A stretch of 64,000 bases of DNA from Sandaracinaceae bacterium (GTDB lineage Bacteria > Myxococcota_A > Polyangia > Polyangiales > Sandaracinaceae), in NCBI GenBank assembly GCA_044220955.1, contig JBGAQA010000001.1, positions 1 through 64,000 of the forward strand. The letters run 5' to 3'. The position numbers and the translations under genes were made by a program. The notes under the pieces are model-generated. The model ran no database searches. It was not told the DNA's origin and saw only the letters and a list, made by a program, of their open reading frames with translations. This document shows, in pieces, positions 4,001 to 45,235 of this stretch. The stretch's first letter is position 1. The number at the start of each line of letters is the position of its first letter.

Positions 4001-5860
4001 GACGGCCGTGTCGGCCGCGAGCGAGACGCGAACGAGCCGCTCGGAGACCAGGGTCTCCGGGTGCAGGAGCGCCTCGTCGTACGCGCGCTCGAGGAAGTAG
4101 CTCGCGAAGTCCTGCTCGCCGCCGTGCGCCGCGAGGTCTCGAACGAGCAGCGCGCCCCACGCGCGCGGGCCGTTCGGCCGACTCACGAGGTCGACGTGCG
4201 CGGTCTCGCCGACCTGCCAGCGCGCTCGCTCCGGCGCGAGCGTGACGAAGTCGGGACCGGCCGGCACGACCAAGACGCTGGTCGCGCCGCCGACGCCCTC
4301 GAGGCTCTCGTCCTCGTGCACGGCGCGCGCTCGGATGGTGAAGCGTCCGATGCGATCGGCGGGGACGTGCAGGCGCGCGCTCGTCGCGCGCGGCGCTGCG
4401 AACACCACGTCCAGCGGCTCGCCCCGCGCGCCGTCGACGAGCTCGACGACGAGGGTGCTGCGCTCCGCCGACGGACGGCGCGCGAGCGCGACCTCGACGC
4501 TCGCTCCCGGCGCCACGACGGGATGCGAGACCGTGGGGAGGACCTCGGGCGCGAGGGCGACGGGCACGGAGAGGTGCGCGAGGCGCTCGAGCGGCCCGCC
4601 GAGCACGTGCACGTCGAGCGACGCACGCCGCTCCTCGAAGGGCCCGGCGCTCGCTCCGATGGGCAGTCGCACGCGGATCTCCGCCAGACCATTCACGTCG
4701 GTCTCGGCGCTCGCCGTCCCGCCCGGGACCGCCGCGCCCGACACCTCGACGCGCGTGCCGGCCGGCGGTGGCTGGCCCAGCGGATCGACCAGCTGCACGT
4801 AGAGCACGTCGTCGAGCTCGGGCGTGAGCGACGCGTGCGCGGCCACGAGGTCGACGCTCAGGGAGAGCGGCACCGCAACGCGCATCATCGCGCTCACGTC
4901 GATCGAGCCGTACGCCGGGTGCGTCACGTGTGCGAGCACGGCGGCCGCGCCCGTGTCCCCCGACAGGTACGCCGGCGCGTGCACCACGAGGCTCGCCACG
5001 CCGCTCGCGTCCGTCGTCGCGACACCGGCGGGCACGCCAGCGACCTCGATCTCGACGCTCGCGTCGCGGACCGGTGCGGCGTCGGGCGTGGTCACTTCCA
5101 CGCGGACGGTGGTCTCGCCGCCGGGCGCGACCTCCTCGGGCGCGACGTCCGCGTGGGCGAAGATGCGCTCCCAGACGCGCTGGCCCACCCGGAAGCTCGT
5201 CTGCGGGGTGACGCCGAGGACGCGCGCGCCGACGCTGACCCAGCCCTCCGTGGCGTGGGGCCCCAGCTCGAACGAGAACGACGCGACGCCGGCCTCGTTC
5301 GTCGAGAGCGTGCGCTGCATGCGGTCGAGCGCCGGGCCGAAGAGCTCGAAGGTGACCGCCTGCGAAGCGAGCGGCGCTCCCGACGCGCCGTCGCGAACGA
5401 GCGTCCAGACGTGCACCGGCTCGCCGGGCTCGTAGAGCACGCGGTCGGTCACGAGCCGGACGTCGACCGCCGGTGCGACGACGACGGGCAGCTCGAACGA
5501 GCGCGCCGCACCCTCGGGCCCGACCTCGACCTCGATGCGCGGCTGGTCGCTCGCCGGCCCGATCGCCACGGCGACCTCGAAGCGCCCGTGCGCGTCGCTC
5601 GTCACGGCCCGCCATGGACCGGAGGACGTCGCGGTGCGGAACCGCGCGCGGACGGCGCCCGCGTACGCGCTCAGCGTGGAGAGCCCGCGCACGCGATAGG
5701 CGACGCCGCGGAAGCGCGCGTCGCGATCGGCGCGCACGCTGCCGGGCCCCGAGAGGGCGAGCTCGTAGCCCGTTTCCGGCAGCGGCTGTGCGAGGGCGAT
5801 GCCCGCCGGGACCACGACGAAGAACGCGAGCAGGGCGAGAGTCGAGGCGGAGGTGCGCAC
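1094..5860 (-). CDS. Alpha-2-macroglobulin-like (MG2/A2M domain) secreted protein, about 1590 aa, no thioester motif
   Basis: ORF 1094..6040; probable start GTG 5860 before a signal peptide (TLALLAFFVVVPAGIALAQ). MG2 motif TDRVLYEPGEPVHV; A2M motif RERFPPTVLF...LADAVTSYRV; C-terminal receptor-binding-like segment. No CxEQ found. Confidence 0.8.
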   Translation of the reverse strand: MRTSASTLALLAFFVVVPAGIALAQPLPETGYELALSGPGSVRADRDARFRGVAYRVRGLSTLSAYAGAVRARFRTATSSGPWRAVTSDAHGRFEVAVAIGPASDQPRIEVEVGPEGAARSFELPVVVAPAVDVRLVTDRVLYEPGEPVHVWTLVRDGASGAPLASQAVTFELFGPALDRMQRTLSTNEAGVASFSFELGPHATEGWVSVGARVLGVTPQTSFRVGQRVWERIFAHADVAPEEVAPGGETTVRVEVTTPDAAPVRDASVEIEVAGVPAGVATTDASGVASLVVHAPAYLSGDTGAAAVLAHVTHPAYGSIDVSAMMRVAVPLSLSVDLVAAHASLTPELDDVLYVQLVDPLGQPPPAGTRVEVSGAAVPGGTASAETDVNGLAEIRVRLPIGASAGPFEERRASLDVHVLGGPLERLAHLSVPVALAPEVLPTVSHPVVAPGASVEVALARRPSAERSTLVVELVDGARGEPLDVVFAAPRATSARLHVPADRIGRFTIRARAVHEDESLEGVGGATSVLVVPAGPDFVTLAPERARWQVGETAHVDLVSRPNGPRAWGALLVRDLAAHGGEQDFASYFLERAYDEALLHPETLVSERLVRVSLAADTAVDGEPPIAAPLVDALGLPREDSSAAAEAPGRDVLRDPWPLARELERRGAGQMMVALEAALTEALDTGGLSDLTTGSGAQRRFEDDVLDASAYPTLGEGETTPAMLTAVDPSFTYEHVARRVARVRLVALLASLAAYLDPGDDASLAARTAYREPWQRWLGRMVERGVISDAALDDPWGGRFALTASAHPTFVLSTAATGVELVSPGPDGRLGTADDVRDPFDRVVPAGTPYAVASGEDALMRQLAILSPVERTLPALRAAYRRISAEMTEDEIGDAVHASVSEGTIGLGMIGTIGHGSGGGGSGYGYGSGSGSLGTGVRGGSVHVTSGGGNLARLVRERFPPTVLFTPSFEVDPSGRTRLDIPLADAVTSYRVEVIVWRADGWMWSARAEIQSDREVVVDAPIPNVASVGDQLSLPVRVGNRGTSVRTLRLALLGDDGLGIADAPAVEVTVEPGGSAAVPFLVAPTVRGEGSLQVVASDASGNVLDAVRRPLQVIAPARTVRLVREALVEGQGTISLEVPADADPRSGSLELVVGAALFRSAGDDALEAWVQAPRSDAGVDRLPAIVAALQAESAPRLGYAIGAAYTQRAITDESLRLAAEALTTSLDARGDDPAARVTFASSTLIGLSHATTSLGARPAIAGDMQRLIDRLVREVGDAAVGLDGQTAETVLAAAALATAGGERSAARARELLRRAEPDLVTVGDDLWVAVAERATSTTLVFALAELALGDRQRAFSLLATVARWRARGRYVGAEDLAMARSIALELASGASPETAQVTIDGAPSALGLLDGSDTADLPSLAASGVHRITVDVGDHVAVHAIARAELGVPWETPPERPGPFVLALEGESHGQDEVADLALVITNRSPRWIAAPVVEISLPTGAELTAAALARVRRGVRSADATPSLLRVVLPPLAPGAEQRVALPIRWSVAGTLAGIGAAAYATDRADAVSVLAPRPLEIAALLVGGAP

Positions 5861-11921: not shown

Positions 11922-13256
11922 ATGCAGACGATGACGCCCCCGACGCCGGGCTCGCTCGACGTCACGATCGCGACGCTCGGCGAGCGTAAGGTCTGCTCCC
12001 CCCTCGGCCTCTCGACCGTCGCGGGGGACTGGATCGCCGACTACGTCCCCGACGACACGCGGGTGGCCTACGAGGTCGAGAGCCGCGCGGGACAGGTGTC
12101 GACGCCCTCGCTCTTCGAGAAAGCGGGCCCGCGAGAGACGATCTTCTTCGAGCCCGAGCGGACGCGCGCGGGCATCGTGACGTGCGGCGGGCTCTGCCCG
12201 GGCATCAACAACGTCGTGCGCTCGCTCGTGCTCGAGCTGCACCACAAGTACCGCGCGGCCGCGACGCTGGGGTTCCGGTACGGATACCAGGGCCTCGACC
12301 CGAGCGGGGGCCTGCCGCCGACGACGCTCACCCCGGCGGACGTGATGCACGTACACCGCCAGGGGGGCAGCGTGCTCGGCCTCTCGCGCGGCGCGCACGA
12401 CGTGGGCGTGATGGTCGACACGCTCGTCGAGCGGAAGATCGACGTGCTCTTCGCGATCGGCGGCGACGGCACGCTGCGCGGCGCGCACGCGATCGCGGGC
12501 GAGGTGAGGCGGCGCGGGCTCCCGATCGCGGTCGTGGCGATCCCCAAGACCATCGACGCCGACGTGGAGTACATCGACGAGACGTTCGGCTACCAGACCG
12601 CCGTCGACGTCGCGCGCCTCGCGGTGGACGCCGCGCACACCGAGGCGATCAGCGCGTACAACGGCGTCGGCGTCGTGAAGCTCATGGGGCGCGACGCGGG
12701 CTTCATCGCGGCGTCGGCGACGCTCGCGAGCCGCGAGGTGAACTACTGCCTCATCCCCGAGGTCCCCTTCGCGCTCGAGGGACCGAACGGCCTGCTCGCG
12801 GCGCTCGAGCGCCGGCTCGAGGCCCGGCACCACGCCCTGATCGTGGTCGCCGAGGGCTGCGCGAGCTCGCTCGTCGGCCCCGACGCCGCGCGCGACCCCT
12901 CGGGCAACCTGCGCTACGCGAGCGCGGGCCTCGACATCGGGACGCACCTGCGCGACGCGATCAGCGCGCACCTCGCCGCACGCAAGATCCCGTCGAGCGT
13001 CAAGTACATCGATCCGAGCTACATGATCCGCAGCGTCCCGGCGAACGCGCACGACGCCATCTTCTGCGACGCGCTCGCGCGCAACGCCGTGCACGCGGCG
13101 ATGGCCGGCAAGACCGACCTCGTCATCGGCACGGTGCACGGCACGTTCACGCACCTGCCGCTCGCGCTCGTGACGGGCAAGCGCAAGCAGGTGAACCCCG
13201 ACGGGGCGCTCTGGCTCTCCGTCACGGAGGCCACCGGCCAGCCGCCGCTGCGCTGA
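11922..13256 (+). CDS. pfkA: ATP-dependent 6-phosphofructokinase (group X type)
   Basis: GIVTCGGLCPGIN, IGGDGT, PKTIDAD, KLMGRDAGFIA, KYIDPSYMIRS; ATG 11922 inside ORF 11238..13256. Confidence 0.93.
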   Translation: MQTMTPPTPGSLDVTIATLGERKVCSPLGLSTVAGDWIADYVPDDTRVAYEVESRAGQVSTPSLFEKAGPRETIFFEPERTRAGIVTCGGLCPGINNVVRSLVLELHHKYRAAATLGFRYGYQGLDPSGGLPPTTLTPADVMHVHRQGGSVLGLSRGAHDVGVMVDTLVERKIDVLFAIGGDGTLRGAHAIAGEVRRRGLPIAVVAIPKTIDADVEYIDETFGYQTAVDVARLAVDAAHTEAISAYNGVGVVKLMGRDAGFIAASATLASREVNYCLIPEVPFALEGPNGLLAALERRLEARHHALIVVAEGCASSLVGPDAARDPSGNLRYASAGLDIGTHLRDAISAHLAARKIPSSVKYIDPSYMIRSVPANAHDAIFCDALARNAVHAAMAGKTDLVIGTVHGTFTHLPLALVTGKRKQVNPDGALWLSVTEATGQPPLR

Positions 13257-37758: not shown

Positions 37759-37786
37759 GAGCGAGAGCGAGAGCGAGAGCGAGAGC
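37759..37786 (-). repeat. Hexanucleotide repeat (GCTCTC) x about 4.7, same unit as 13276-13335
   Basis: Plus strand (GAGCGA)4-GAGC, immediately after the stop of the RsmI-like gene. Confidence 0.9.
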
Positions 37787-38906: not shown

Positions 38907-40268
38907 TCACGGCGCGGGCTCGATGGGCAGGCTCCGGAGGTCGATGCGGATCGCGGCGCGCACGGGCGAGCCGCTGCCTGCGCTGTGCCAGCCGAAGGTC
39001 ACCACCTCGCTCTGCGAGACCCAAATCGGGTTGTCCAGCAACCCCCAGCGCGTCCCGTCCGCGCTCGCCGGCGGCACCGCGAACCGGCGCTGGGTGCCGT
39101 CGGCCAGCGAGATCGCGGCGACGAACTGGCCCGAGGTGGAGCTGTTCACGTAAGCGTAGGTTCCGTCGCCGATCGCGGCACAGGTCGTCGACGCGCACGA
39201 GCCGAGGTCGTCCCGCACGCGTCGCGGCGCGAACCGCGCCATGCTCGTCTCGAACGGTGCAGTCCACAGCTCGTTGAGCGGGAAAGACGTGTGGGTGGGA
39301 TCGTCGGGGCCTTCGCGCCACACGATGTCGGTGGCGTCGGCTTCCAGGCCGTAGACATGCATGCCCGGCCGGGTGGAGGGGTAGAGCGGCTGGCGGCCCT
39401 CGTCGAGACTGACGACGTCGAACCCCGCGGTGCTCTCGGCGCTGGCCCGGAGCCCCAGCACGTAGTGACCGACGACCACCGGCTCCGCGCCTATCTCCGG
39501 GAACATCGCCCAGCGCGGCGGCTCCGCGACGAGAACGGCGGTGGTGGTGTCGATCGCGAAGGTCGTCTCGCTCGCGCTCGGCGACTGGACGAGATCGGCG
39601 TTGGTGATCACGCCGGACGGGACCTGCCAGAGCCCATCCACGAGCGGAGTCAGGTCGGACCAGCTTGCGAGCCCGATGAAGTCGTCGTGCCCCACGCCCG
39701 AGAACCAGTAGGCCGCATCGACGCCAACGGTCGTGCGATTGACGGTCGTGTCGGGACTACATAGGTCCGAGCGCCACGCGAACACCGCTTCATCGTCGTG
39801 GACGATCACGTAGTAGATGATCTCGACTCGGTCTGGATCTTCCAGGATCCACACCATCGCGCCGCGCGCATCGGTCCCTCCGTGGTTGGGAGCCACGCGA
39901 AGGAGCGGCGCGGCGGCGTGGTCGACCACGGTCCACTCACACACCGAGAGTGATCCGGGGCAGCGCTCCCAGTGGAACGCGAGCACGGCCTGCGGCTGTA
40001 GCGCGTACTGGAGACAGTCGCTCGGGAAGCCCGGGATCGAGGTCCAGCCCGGATCGTCCGGAGGCAGCGACGGCACCCTCGCGTCGTGGACCGAGCGCCA
40101 GGCGTCGTCCTCGCTCGCATCGTGGCCGCCGTCACGGCCGGCATCCCGGCCCGCCTCGCGCCCGCCGTCGGTCCCCGCGTCGGACAGAGACGCGTCGTCG
40201 CCCGGCGCGCCGCTACAGGCGACGGCCACGCTGAAGGCAGCAATGAGGACGCGGGCGCGCATGGACAC
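38907..40268 (-). CDS. Hypothetical lipoprotein (DAG linker plus beta-rich domain)
   Basis: VAVAC lipobox; starts 9 nt after the protease stop. Confidence 0.7.
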   Translation of the reverse strand: MSMRARVLIAAFSVAVACSGAPGDDASLSDAGTDGGREAGRDAGRDGGHDASEDDAWRSVHDARVPSLPPDDPGWTSIPGFPSDCLQYALQPQAVLAFHWERCPGSLSVCEWTVVDHAAAPLLRVAPNHGGTDARGAMVWILEDPDRVEIIYYVIVHDDEAVFAWRSDLCSPDTTVNRTTVGVDAAYWFSGVGHDDFIGLASWSDLTPLVDGLWQVPSGVITNADLVQSPSASETTFAIDTTTAVLVAEPPRWAMFPEIGAEPVVVGHYVLGLRASAESTAGFDVVSLDEGRQPLYPSTRPGMHVYGLEADATDIVWREGPDDPTHTSFPLNELWTAPFETSMARFAPRRVRDDLGSCASTTCAAIGDGTYAYVNSSTSGQFVAAISLADGTQRRFAVPPASADGTRWGLLDNPIWVSQSEVVTFGWHSAGSGSPVRAAIRIDLRSLPIEPAP

Positions 40269-40277
40269 CAGCGTCGC

Positions 40278-43200
40278 TCAGAACGTCTCGCCGCAGTCGT
40301 CGCGGTCCGCGTCGACGCGCGACGTGATCGGGTAGTGGCGAACCTCGACGTGCGTCCGGAGATCCACCGCGAGCCCGATGTCGAAAGGACCCGCATACAG
40401 CATCGTCGAGCCGACCGCACCGTCGCCCGAGCCGATCCGTCGGACGTGGACCTCGTCCCAAGCATCACGATGGCGCCCAGGCGCATGGTGCTCGATGCTC
40501 AGCCGCGCCACGACGTGCCGCCGCGCGGATCCGCTCGCGCCCACGAAGAGCTGGCCGTCCGGCCCGGCGCCGAGCGCGAAGCGTGTGTTCCGGCTCGTGC
40601 GCGGCCAACTCGCGAGCACCGTCGCGCCGTCCGAACTCGGGTCGACCGACACGAGCCGTACGACCGGCACGGGCCTGCCGCGTCCGCGATCCGAAGGCAG
40701 CGTATCCAGCACGAACAGGCGATTGCCGATCACGTCATACGTCGCGGCCAGGGGCTCCCCGAGCGCCACGTCGTCGATCGGGACGCTCCGGCGTACACCG
40801 TCGTCGAGGTCGATCGCGGACACCTGCGAGTCGATCACGAAGAGCTCGCCGCGCGAGGCCGACAGCACGAACACGGGCTGGGGCGCCGCGACGGCGGCTC
40901 GCGTAGACACGAGCGCTTGGGGGAAGCAGTTGCTCGGCCCGTTGCCGGGAGGACAGCCAGGGTTGAACCCTTCGGGCGCGAACCCGAACGGTGTCTGCCG
41001 GAGCACGCTCGCGATCTGGGATCCGTCGGACGCGATGCCCACGAAGCGGAGCGTCTGATCCGAGCGCAAGAGCGTGACTGGCTCCGCGAGCGCCGTCCAG
41101 CTCAGGTCCGTCGCGGTGAGCGGGGGATCGCTCGGGAAGACGGAGGCCGCTGGGATCGCGCCCACATCTGTGTACTGCAGCGCCAGCACGGGCGCAGGGA
41201 GGCCCGCGAACGTCGCGGGCACGAACCAGGGCCACTCCCCGAGCGGGGGGCAGATCGGCCCCAGGCTCGGCAGGCTCCGGCGGCAATCCGGGACGGGTAG
41301 CGTGCGGCACCCAGGAGGGATCGGTCCGGTGGGCGGGCACGCCGGGCCGCTCGGCGGAGTCACGGACAAGGGCGCGACCTGGCCGGAGCGGTAGTGACTG
41401 CGCAGAGCGCGGGTCGCCGGATCCGGGCTCGATGCACACAGGAGCGGCAGGCGGCAGTCGTGAGGCGAGTGCGTCCAGAGCACGCCTGGTACCGGCTCCG
41501 TGCTCGTCGGGGTTGTGTCGCCATACGCGAGGGCCGCCCAGCGCGGGATGTCGGCCTCCCACAGCTGCCAGTCGAAGGTCGGCGGCACCGACGGGCTCCT
41601 CCCCGTCGCCCCAGGCCCGAGTGGCAGTGAGCGATAGGTCACGAGGTCGGCCGCGGCGTCGGCGCGGAGACTCGTGATGTGACGCCAGGGTTGCAACAGC
41701 GAGTCGTCGGCAGGCTGATCAAACAACGTCTGCACCTGGTTGCGGACTCGCATGTCCGCGACGACACAGCCGGCGCTGGCCTGACACTCCGCCCGGAGCG
41801 TGTGACTTCCGTCGTGCCCAACGTCGTCCGCAGCAACGGGGCAGCGGCAATACCGGAAGCCCGTCGGACCGACGACGGAGGCCCCGGCGACGATGGGATC
41901 CAGCCGGATGGTCGTCGGCTCGAGCGTCGTGCTGCCGGTCCTCACGAGGTCGAGGTACGTGCGCGCGCACGGGATCGGATCGCACTGATCGCCAAGCGCT
42001 ACGCCCAGCGATCCGGTGCAGTCGGCGCTGGTGGGATCACATCGGTCCGCCGCGAGCTCGGCGTCGAGGTTGCAATTCATCTGGTCGGGGTTGAACGAGT
42101 CGCTGGCTTCGCCAGTGGCGGGTGGCGCGCAGTTGTCGCACGCATCGCCGACTCCGTCTCCGTCGCGGTCGGCCTGATCGGGGTCGTAGACGAGCGGGCA
42201 GTCGTCGTGGCCCAGATCCTCGCGCAATCCGTCGCCGTCCTGGTCGCCGGGCTGTTCCCTGTGCGTCGCGGGGTAGTCTGCCGGGCCGACGAACCATCCG
42301 CGCGCCGAGCGATCGGTGCTCAGGAAGCACCCGTTCGGGCCGGAGCAGTGCAAGACTTGGTCGGTGAGCGTCCGTACGTCGGCGTCCCAGACCGGCCGAC
42401 TGCCGAGCACGTTCGGGTTGAAGGTAACCTGGCCGGCATCGGTGCCGACGCCCGCATCGGGCCGGAAGTTGCGCTGCTCGGTGGCGACCGTGACGAGCGA
42501 GATCGCGCTGTCCGGATCGCCGGAGTAGAACGGCGAGCCGGAGTCGCCGAGCGCGACGCTCAAGAAAACGCTGGTCGCGTCGTCGCCGAAGCTCGTGAAG
42601 TCGCCTCGCCCGACCAGCGTTCCCCCGAGCGCGGGTCCGACAGCGCCGAAGGTGACGTCCGCGTAGACGCGACCACGGCCGCGGTTCGCGCGAGCCACGA
42701 CCCCGCCGTCCACGCCCGGAGCTCCGGCATCGACCCGGACGGGGTCGTGCTCGATGTTCACCCAGCGCAGCGGCGTCGGCGTCCCGTTCGCGATCGGTGT
42801 CTCGTCGCGCACACCCGCCGGGGTCGCGGAGATCGTCGTCGCTTGCACGGGGGCATCGACGCGACGATCGAGCAGGAGCAGCTCCCAGTCGAGGCTCGTC
42901 GCCTCCCCCGGAAACAGGTCCATGTCGGTGCACGGCGGCGCCGCCGTCGCGTCGAGACGCAGCGCGTGCTGATGCGCGAGGCACCTGAGCACACCGACCT
43001 GCCCCGGGTCGGTGATGGGCGTCGCGCCGAAGTCGGTGAACGCCTGACCGAACGCGACGCGGTCGGGCGACCCACAGTGAGCAGCGCTCGCCACGACGCG
43101 CGGCGTGATGAGGATGCCGCCGCAGGTGCCGGCGAGGCGGATGAGCGCACCCGACGTCTCGTCGCGGCGCTCGGGGCTGTGCGTCCGCACCACCGCGTCG

Positions 43201-43405
43201 CGCACCGACTGCGCGGACGTGGTCGGGGCGATGTCGGGCGGCAGGCCACCGTCCGGAAGCGTTCCGCCATCCGGGAGGAGACCCACGATGTTCTCGCGGT
43301 CGACCGCCGTCTGCTCCACCGTCTCACAGCCGACGAAAAGGGTCGTCGCTCCGGAGCAAGACAGACAGACAGACAGACAGACAGGACCAGGGCTCGGTCG
43401 CGCAT
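40278..43405 (-). CDS. Trypsin-like serine protease with thrombospondin type-3 repeats, lipoprotein; SD-led start currently frameshifted by an SSR
   Basis: SAAHC, DWELL, GDSGSP triad; DQDGDG...DDCP...DQADRDGDGVGDACDNC. GGAGG-N6-ATG at 43405 is out of frame with the body of ORF 40278..43448. Confidence 0.8.
43359..43383 (-). repeat. Tetranucleotide SSR (TGTC)6 in the protease signal-peptide coding region
   Basis: Plus strand (AGAC)6 read directly. Confidence 0.95.
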
Positions 43406-43492
43406 CGTGGGCCTCCGGGTGATCAGGGTCGGCGGGCGGCCCGGGCATGTCAACGCGGCTGGCTCTGGTGCGCGCCGTGGTAAGCAGCGCGG

Positions 43493-45235
43493 ATGCGGAT
43501 CGAACGACTGCTCGACGAGGTCGCGGCCTCGGCCATCGAGCGCGCCCTCGGCGTGCGCACGCCGGCCGTGCTCCGGCCCACGAGCGACCCCAAGCACGGC
43601 GACTACCAGGTGAACGGCGTGATGCCGCTCGCCAAGCAGCAGAAGAAGAACCCCCGCGAGCTCGCCGAGCCCGTCGCGGCGGTGCTGCGCGAGCACGAGG
43701 CCATCGCGAAGGCCGAGGTGGCGGGGCCTGGCTTCGTCAACGTGACGCTCGCGCCGGCCTTCATCGCGAGCACGCTGCGGCACGCGCTCGGCGATCCGCG
43801 CCAGGGCGTGCCGCCCGCCGAGACCAAGCACCGCATCGTCGTCGACTACTCGAGCCCGAACATCGCCAAGCAGATGCACGTCGGGCACCTGCGCTCGACC
43901 ATCCTCGGCCACGCGATCTGCGAGCTGCTCTCGTTCGTCGGCCACGACGTGATCCGCGACAACCACGTCGGCGACTGGGGCACGCAGTACGGCCTCCTGA
44001 TCGCGGGGCTGCGGCGCTTCCGGCCGGGCGAGGAGGGCGGCGCGATGTCGCTCGACGACCTCGAGGGCCTCTACAAGCAGGCGAGCCAGCTCGCCGAGAC
44101 GGACGCTGCGTTCGCCGATGCCGCGCGCGCCGAGCTCGCCAAGCTCCAGAAGGGCGACCCCGAGAACCGCGCCCTCTGGGAGCGATTCGTGGCGATCACG
44201 CGCGTCGAGCTCGACCGCATGTACGAGCGGCTCGGCGTGCGCTTCGATCACTGGCTCGGCGAGAGCGCGTACGACGCGATGCTCGAGGGCGTGGCGAGGG
44301 ATCTCGAGGCCAAGGGCCTCGCGCGCCGCGACGAGGGCGCGCTCTGCATCTTCTTCGGCGACGAGATCTGGCACGACGCGCCGGAGAAGCTGAAGAAGCA
44401 GAAGGAGCCCTACATCGTCCAGAAGAAGGACGGCGCGTACCTCTACGCGACGAGCGACCTCGCGTGCATCGCGTACCGGCGCGATCACTTCCACGCCGAC
44501 CGCGCCGTCTACGTCGTCGACGTGCGCCAGAGCCTGCACTTCGAGCAGCTCTTCGCGGTCGCGCGGAAGCTCGGCGTCACCATGGGCCTCACGCACGTCG
44601 GCTTCGGCACCATCCTCGGGACCGACGGCAAGCCCCTCAAGACGCGCGACGCGAGCGGCAAGACCATCCCGCTCGCCTCGCTCCTCGACGAGGCGGAGCG
44701 CCGCGCGCTCGAGCTGATGAAGGAGGCCGAGGTCGACCTGCCGGAGCACGAGCTCCCGATCGTGGCGCGCGCGGTCGGCGCGGGCGCGGTGAAGTACGCC
44801 GACCTCCGGCAGAACCGGCTCAGCGACTACCAGTTCGACTGGGCCAAGCTCATCGCGCTCACCGGCAACTGCGGCGTCTACATCCAGTACGCCGCCGCGC
44901 GCGCCGGCGCGATCTTCCGCAAGGGCGAGATCGACGAGCGCACCCTCGCGCCCTCGTCCATCGTGCTCGACGCGCCGCAGGAGCTCTCGCTCGCGCGCAC
45001 GCTGCTGAAGTTCCCCGACGTGGTGCACGCCGCCGCCGAGACCTACCAGCCGCACCTGCTCACGGATCACCTCTACGCGGTCGCGAGCGAGCTCAGCTCG
45101 TTCTACGAGGCGTGCCCCGTCCTCAAGAGCGAGGGCTCGACGCGAGAGAGCCGCCTCGCGCTCGTGGCGCTGGCCGGCCGGCAGCTGCGGCGCGGGCTGC
45201 GATCGATCGGCATCGACGTGATCGAGCGCATGTGA
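43493..45235 (+). CDS. argS: Arginyl-tRNA synthetase
   Basis: HGDYQVN, AGPGFVN, DYSSPNIAKQMHVGHLRST, NHVGDWGTQ, FYEACPVL, terminal ERM. Confidence 0.98.
   Translation: MRIERLLDEVAASAIERALGVRTPAVLRPTSDPKHGDYQVNGVMPLAKQQKKNPRELAEPVAAVLREHEAIAKAEVAGPGFVNVTLAPAFIASTLRHALGDPRQGVPPAETKHRIVVDYSSPNIAKQMHVGHLRSTILGHAICELLSFVGHDVIRDNHVGDWGTQYGLLIAGLRRFRPGEEGGAMSLDDLEGLYKQASQLAETDAAFADAARAELAKLQKGDPENRALWERFVAITRVELDRMYERLGVRFDHWLGESAYDAMLEGVARDLEAKGLARRDEGALCIFFGDEIWHDAPEKLKKQKEPYIVQKKDGAYLYATSDLACIAYRRDHFHADRAVYVVDVRQSLHFEQLFAVARKLGVTMGLTHVGFGTILGTDGKPLKTRDASGKTIPLASLLDEAERRALELMKEAEVDLPEHELPIVARAVGAGAVKYADLRQNRLSDYQFDWAKLIALTGNCGVYIQYAAARAGAIFRKGEIDERTLAPSSIVLDAPQELSLARTLLKFPDVVHAAAETYQPHLLTDHLYAVASELSSFYEACPVLKSEGSTRESRLALVALAGRQLRRGLRSIGIDVIERM

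Follow-up and report, generated by a model that had tools for sequence, protein, structure and literature searches.

Near the start of a predicted trypsin/TSP3 lipoprotein gene lies a perfect (TGTC)6 tract that puts the gene out of frame and has different lengths in different samples. We consider it very likely that this tract acts as a reversible slipped-strand switch; it would be one of several likely switches in the genome and one of many among related free-living myxobacteria. The gene lies in the window (the whole stretch of DNA analyzed, 64,000 nucleotides), which belongs to a genome of 7.5 Mb with 72.5% G+C, represented by a metagenome bin of 301 contigs with N gaps. A sequence-only reading had described the gene as a contingency locus, and this description was supported by the out-of-frame position of the best ribosome site, homologues that begin with MR, an h-region and a Cys, a second tract length, and an enrichment of such tracts close to starts. 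The scope had been underestimated by that reading, as the focal locus belongs to a repertoire that spans the lineage. The features observed at the start of the gene were:

43412..43416, minus strand: Shine-Dalgarno GGAGG, 6 nt ahead of ATG 43405, duplex energy -9.5 kcal/mol
43403..43405, minus strand: probable true start codon ATG, from the ribosome site and the MR..Cys N-termini of homologues
43359..43384, minus strand: perfect (TGTC)6 tract of 6.5 periods, inside the predicted signal h-region
43326..43340, minus strand: predicted lipobox LFVG-C, aligned with LFAGC, LAGC, LSSC and AAGC of homologues
40278..43358, minus strand: intact body of 1026 codons plus stop, with a trypsin (S1) domain, TSP3-like Asp/Cys repeats and a long unannotated C-terminal part
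42758..43405, minus strand: out-of-frame 6-unit product of 215 codons
43448..43453, minus strand: TTGACA hexamer, a possible -35 element whose final base doubles as the A of ATG 43448
43493..45235, plus strand: divergent argS, given as context

The letters reported earlier for the minus strand (GGAGG, six nucleotides, ATG 43405, then six TGTC units) were confirmed. The ATG is followed by CGC GAC CGA GCC CTG GTC C, the six TGTC units and TTGCTCC, with a distance of 21 nt from ATG to tract. From this start the 6-unit allele reads MRDRALVLSVCLSVCLAPERR... and stays open for 215 codons, until the stop at 42760. Frame arithmetic upheld the earlier claim that 6 units are out of frame and that 4 or 7 units join the protease frame, and showed that 10 units restore the frame of the 1026-codon body as well; the lipobox Cys then falls at residue 24, 28 or 32 for 4, 7 or 10 units, respectively. 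An L-S-V-C cycle is encoded by (TGTC)n in all three frames. The ACAG class, to which the tract belongs, was represented only once among the 261 tetranucleotide tracts of at least 3 units in the 7.5 Mb genome, and roughly 1e-9 runs of six units of this class are expected from composition. The tract is thus a perfect repeat, longer than chance, of a unit that is not a multiple of three, and it is located between the body and the start assigned by ribosome site and homology, where its length sets the frame.

The choice of start codon was examined using duplex energies computed against the anti-Shine-Dalgarno motif that matches the 16S tail of this genome. A strong ribosome site was observed at ATG 43405 alone among the tested starts (-9.5 kcal/mol), with ATG 43448 at -2.1 kcal/mol and five in-frame GTGs at -3.0 kcal/mol or weaker. 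A very unlikely alternative is expression from ATG 43448 or GTG 43319, in which case only a leader or some 5' untranslated sequence would vary with the tract. Both codons are in the body frame at 6 units, and the public gene call (P0001, 1013 aa) does begin at GTG 43319, beyond the lipobox, which is therefore dropped. Neither codon has a ribosome site, however, and the GTG would give a protein lacking the lipobox that homologues keep. The sequence-only reading had noted that ATG 43448 gives a Pro-rich leader and lies close to the argS ATG (43493, 45 nt away), and both points stood, while the third in-frame start, GTG 43319, had been overlooked. The first 23 residues of this leader include 8 Pro, 4 acidic and 1 basic residues, its Cys is placed at 41, its ATG overlaps TTGACA, and its frame would be broken in a 5-unit allele. 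We found no matching -10 element for the TTGACA at 43448-43453, and a sigma-70 promoter scan returned 0 sites. A paralogue (P0003) starts MRGHLVRLVLFALTLAGC, with GGAGG-N6-ATG, MR, h-region and Cys, and the closest homologue within the genus (G003:C1) starts MRRVVW...AMGC behind GGAGG-N6, both without a tract. From the ribosome site and this homologue layout we firmly infer ATG 43405 as the true start.

The body behind the tract is predicted to have a chymotrypsin fold with a His-Asp-Ser triad (S1) and is a predicted protease. Its match to the Pfam trypsin family (PF00089) was weak, at 20.4 bits slightly below the cut-off of 20.6. In an alignment of 40 N-terminal domains the His was invariant and the Asp and Ser were observed in at least 90% of rows, with the triad complete in the focal protein:

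42531..43085, minus strand: catalytic triad motifs AAHC (43085), DWELL (42890) and GDSGSP (42548), placed by alignment

A profile built from this alignment matched 538 PDB sequences with S1 proteases on top (best E 5.5e-24). The single-sequence fold (pLDDT 32) was set aside for an alignment-based model (pLDDT 64, pTM 0.68), whose first Foldseek matches were kallikrein, tryptase and elastase at a TM of about 0.5. The closest orthologue (P0002, 63%) carries GDPGS in place of GDSGS, with Pro at the catalytic Ser, and protease activity is therefore not certain as the selected function. The gene call for P0002 begins just five residues ahead of its lipobox Cys. The long C-terminal part behind the TSP3-like repeats is conserved among homologues, the best of which in titled records came mostly from Sandaracinaceae, Polyangiaceae and other Myxococcota bins. 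An identity with NCBIfam MtsC was rejected (33.9 bits against a cut-off of 350), as the TSP3-like repeats alone were responsible for the match. Nearly all full-length members of the family end in Cys-Phe or Cys-Leu (ERCF, SSCF, ACF, RCL), perhaps a terminal disulphide or a sorting mark; the focal protein ends CGETF (40278-40300).

The N-termini of 4- and 7-unit alleles would read MRDR followed by an h-region of moderate hydrophobicity and a Cys at 24 or 28, and the extra Cys residues within the repeat could serve as alternative lipidation sites. The body itself is intact (1026 open codons) and the lipobox is conserved in homologues, with a surface location predicted for the protein.

Tract length was compared across metagenome runs, of which 8 of 24 listed were examined as assembled contigs, with the tract letters masked in the alignments. 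Runs containing the stretch were bioreactor and sludge metagenomes, with one unlabelled. In run X1, which may be the source sample, a contig (record 2, depth 8.8) covered 43017-43497 gap-free with 6 units. In run X3, from another study, record 18 gave 336 letters over 340 bases, with 4 gap letters, 0 other differences and a depth of 3.2, and the depth dip was located in the bin of the tract. X3 therefore carries a 5-unit allele, which is also off, as seen in a single contig of depth 3.2 with a masked tract. Contigs from two studies (X4 record 24, X5 record 8) each stopped after exactly 28 letters below 43391, where the sequences of a 5-unit allele and a longer one part ways. Because both end at the 5-unit fork, mixed lengths are probably present within samples X4 and X5, as judged from contig ends with the letters masked. 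The tract was bridged in 2 of the 8 runs, both with out-of-frame lengths, and no contig crossed it in X2, X6, X8 and X15; the X15 contigs break off 35 and 7 letters inside the masked stretch, at places that match no fork point. A 4- or 7-unit (in-frame) allele was not observed in the contigs of the 8 runs, 2 of which bridge the tract, and the exact pattern across the tract gave no match in metagenome contigs. The 90% cluster of the called protein held no second allele, since this cluster has one member.

These contigs, at low depth, agree with the earlier proposal of a variable tract, with 6 units in X1 and 4 letters fewer in X3. They also run counter to an assembly or sequencing error hiding a true count of 4 or 7 units, which we regard as extremely unlikely. 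The 301-contig bin has N gaps, and longer tracts do break assemblies, e.g. at L071, which would favor such an error. However, a separately assembled contig has 6 units at depth 8.8, another study gives 5, and the 26-nt tract is shorter than both the 31-letter words and the reads.

Two additional features were placed around the protease gene:

38907..40268, minus strand: partner gene, a predicted lipoprotein, 9-15 nt past the protease stop, with a weak ribosome site
43467..43468, no strand: apparent boundary of a cassette that varies between strains, next to argS, from contig comparison

The partner matched no Pfam or NCBIfam family, and its Atlas matches were all <0.9. Of 16 distinct homologous loci, 15 have a partner homologue behind the protease, and the remaining one ends inside the protease gene. 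At the cassette edge, a contig from X2 (depth 17.6) agrees with the window from 43468 up but has 1115 different letters ahead of that point, and X1 contigs break at 43467-43468. Five relatives within the genus carry different genes upstream of argS, and a DNA-level orthologue of the locus was not found among 30 relatives, in which matches were confined to argS. The protease and its partner thus occupy an apparent strain-variable slot beside argS, with a cassette G+C (0.69-0.73) barely unlike that of the flanks. A tract-less paralogue (G000:C274, about 12770-12860) lies directly behind an apparent tRNA-Gly gene, as judged by eye; tRNA genes are common integration sites.

The focal tract is accompanied by others in the same genome. 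Five of the seven tetranucleotide tracts of at least 5 units sit 3-21 nt behind an ATG, before a signal-like stretch that contains a Cys. Each of these five is out of frame, and the remaining two lie away from starts. The start-proximal tracts further to the focal one were:

G000:C5:20760, C49:10869, C248:46275 and C237:179: tetranucleotide tracts close to a start, all out of frame

We scored tracts by a lipobox test, which required an ATG within 50 nt and a lipobox within 30 codons and was passed by 696 of 20000 random places (3.5%). Four of the seven tetranucleotide tracts of at least 5 units passed. By number of units, the passes were 3 of 3 (6 or more units), 1 of 4 (5 units), 4 of 10 (4 units) and 18 of 244 (3 units), and all four passing 4-unit tracts were in frame. 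Only 3 of 215 hexanucleotide tracts passed, and homopolymer, di- and trinucleotide tracts showed no enrichment at lipoprotein starts in this genome. Off tracts are followed by long, uninterrupted bodies of 1026, 1914, 658+ and 2243 codons. Those behind the four other tracts belong to large predicted exported proteins, two of them (C5:20760, C49:10869) with teneurin-TTR domains and CBM96/DNRLRE-like N-terminal parts, one with SpvB, FG-GAP and RHS matches and possibly its own start further on, and one cut by a contig end. In L065, from another genus, a homologue of the C5:20760 and C49:10869 proteins has the same word, in frame. Tract lengths were 5-7 units in this genome and up to 26 in relatives. 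MutS and MutL are both encoded, and the genome is therefore no general mutator by gene content, which ruled out loss of mismatch repair.

Repeats and frameshifts of other kinds were also seen. The genome is very rich in hexanucleotide repeats of the GCGAGG/GCGAGA type (215 tracts of at least 4 units, often at contig ends), and one at 37759-37786 adjoins a lipoprotein start reading MRLALALALALAL. The paralogues at G000:C8 (about 4800-5700) and C44 (about 94180) appear by eye to be frameshifted inside the trypsin domain, and G003:C1 has a mid-gene frameshift; these three apparent frameshifts are at or near short C runs or lack a tract.

Relatives were searched by repeat, with two degenerate patterns scanned over 31 other genomes of the family. 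A total of 19 perfect tracts of at least 5 units were observed, of which 11 passed the lipobox test (null 3.2-3.4%), one of them (L129) probably by chance. Four of the 11 were in frame, and four further family tracts were seen by eye behind an ATG and a signal. In a 300-genome sample of the phylum, 50 other genomes matched, and 30 loci and 12 regions were examined among the matches listed. Within the same order, a Shine-Dalgarno sequence and ATG were found within 25 nt at 15 of 20 perfect tracts among the matches listed (null 5.3-5.8%), with a weak signal outside the order (2 of 9 tracts among the matches listed). Imperfect pattern matches, duplicate loci of one place, 239 unlisted matches and the loci of genome G042, in which the one locus screened lacked a perfect tract, were left out. 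Homology to the focal protease was seen in four of 33 compared bodies, each with a different word. Two 78%-identical paralogues in one genome (L106, L153) were observed with one in frame and one out.

In one order-level genome, out-of-frame GCAG tracts lie behind the Shine-Dalgarno sequence and ATG of response-regulator genes (L104, L148), and the repertoire is therefore wider than exported proteins. Very long TTCG tracts were also found, with more than 14 units running into an N gap at L071:1525 and 26 units at L110:1498. Long tracts break short-read assemblies, and any census therefore undercounts.

A protein-first search, in which selection was blind to repeats, gave 78 loci by alignment, some matching the TSP3-like part alone. 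We counted all 46 anchors with a His motif, including the few that are spurious or in neighboring genes. A tract was found within 600 nt upstream at 14 of the 46, with five tracts in the other 281 kb. Five of the 14 were G runs of 9-12, which assemble poorly, and the nine non-homopolymer tracts were of the TGTC class (four, one imperfect), CAGGT, GCAG, GGTCT, GCAGATC and TGGT, five out of frame and four in frame. Loci without a His motif contributed 11 more tracts, all 2-32 nt behind an ATG, ten out of frame and one mixed. Ten of these precede an open signal-plus-Cys body, and one locus (L207) contains stops. The P values for the tracts in loci without a His motif ranged from 1e-5 to 1e-16 and are overstated, as kin are not independent. 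The protein-first and tract-first sets overlap, and their counts are therefore not additive. The use of different words by one family at a single spot suggests repeated selection, and unrelated words at one position would be hard to explain by descent or chance.

We weighed these results against one-way decay, in which a repeat that grew by drift was tolerated, as repeats are in signal-peptide regions, and slippage then inactivated a dispensable accessory gene now heading for loss, with no selection for switching. Several observations are consistent with decay, including the location of the gene within a strain-variable cassette, the other frameshifts in relatives and paralogues, and the abundance of hexanucleotide repeats in this genome. 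All five start-proximal tracts here are off, and the off state at 5 of 5 tracts here and 10 of 11 family tracts exceeds a flat one-in-three expectation, an excess that equally fits selection for the off state. Against decay, however, the bodies of 1026, 1914, 658+ and 2243 codons behind off tracts remain intact, and the enrichment at starts is of frame-shifting words of 4, 5 and 7 nt and not of frame-keeping words of 6 nt (3 of 215). In addition, in-frame and out-of-frame tracts coexist among homologues, even in the 78%-identical pair, and many different words were recruited to one spot. Decay of this kind is therefore unlikely, and we favor the reversible switch.

For such a switch, translation would begin at ATG 43405, as the ribosome site and homologues suggest, and replication slippage would gain or lose 4-nt units, at a presumed rate and with presumed reversibility; a 4-letter difference was seen between runs. 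Alleles of 4, 7 and 10 units would yield LFVG-C and the full body, 5 units a short product and 6 units the 215-codon junk product, so that one length in three would be on. As a 4-nt unit recurs every 12 nt, all frames would read one tetrapeptide cycle. The words give L-S-V-C, R-S-F-V, A-R-T-H or G-R-Q-A, which are stop-free and suited to an n- or h-region. The signal peptide holding the repeat is predicted to be cleaved in the Sec/SPII pathway, which would leave the same mature lipidated protein from every in-frame allele. The outcome would be a population with a minority of cells displaying the protease, and the partner lipoprotein would probably be co-switched by translational coupling or polarity. 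The benefit may be bet-hedging on a costly, exposed accessory protein, e.g. a phage receptor or a weapon against prey or rivals. In other taxa the usual drivers of switching are phage, grazers, rival swarms and cost, and the same may apply here.

On a wider scale, we lean slightly towards the view that free-living Polyangiales maintain a large convergent phasome. Accessory exported families (trypsin/TSP3, teneurin-TTR/CBM96, RHS-type and unknown lipoproteins), and even response regulators, would each have recruited 4-, 5- or 7-letter repeats with words that are signal-compatible in every frame. A swarm would then be a mosaic of cells randomly displaying predation, kin-recognition or phage-receptor proteins.

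Several consequences follow from the locus. What it newly adds is a between-sample difference in length together with the repeated recruitment of different words by one family. Given this length difference and several loci per genome, the proposal is directly testable in public metagenome reads. Gene callers truncate such genes, as in the public call without signal and lipobox, and myxobacterial secretomes are therefore under-annotated. Such loci also flag exported proteins under fluctuating selection in a social predator.

The sequence-only reading knew of no characterized case in myxobacteria, and in our literature search, too, no title and no opening of an abstract dealt with repeat-driven switching in this group; survey lists of long SSRs may hold myxobacterial tracts. 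A review of myxobacterial genomics, in the portion available, names phase variation just in its references (PMC8538405). Phase variation is described in a myxobacterium, the yellow/tan variation of Myxococcus xanthus, which as far as the available text goes is a colony-level regulatory switch (PMC3986340). Its mechanism is apparently different from the one proposed here, as the words 'slipped', 'repeat' and 'rearrangement' are absent from the available part of that paper (PMC3986340). The mechanism proposed for the focal gene is a textbook one of the Neisseria autA/nalP type, in a lineage and on a scale that we did not find in print. A close likeness is to autA/autB of Neisseria meningitidis, where, in the available text, AAGC repeats lie directly behind the start codon as in the focal gene (PMC5472700). 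These are autotransporters of a human pathogen, whereas the focal family consists of predicted trypsin/TSP3 lipoproteins of free-living myxobacteria, with many words and known from sequence alone. The same source, as available, describes NalP of Neisseria as a lipidated serine protease that switches through slippage of a coding poly-C tract and is on in about half of strains (PMC5472700), and PilC is reported in the part of a second paper available to have a poly-G switch in its signal-peptide region (PMC13190605). Both use homopolymer tracts, in contrast to the tetranucleotide of the focal gene, and NalP is a subtilisin-type autotransporter, whereas the focal protein combines an S1 trypsin domain with TSP3-like repeats and has a partner lipoprotein that is conserved.

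Haemophilus influenzae offers a comparison at the level of the genome, with lic1 and hgp among its tetranucleotide phasome loci. About 12 tetranucleotide loci are described for this species in the available part of a 2025 review, nearly all at the 5' coding ends of surface-related genes (PMC11868660), and the same text treats the confinement of multi-locus phase variation to pathogens as a major open question (PMC11868660). The likeness lies in several tetranucleotide tracts per genome at 5' coding ends. H. influenzae, however, is host-restricted, with long tracts and low G+C, whereas the genome studied here is that of a sludge organism of 7.5 Mb and 72.5% G+C with short tracts.
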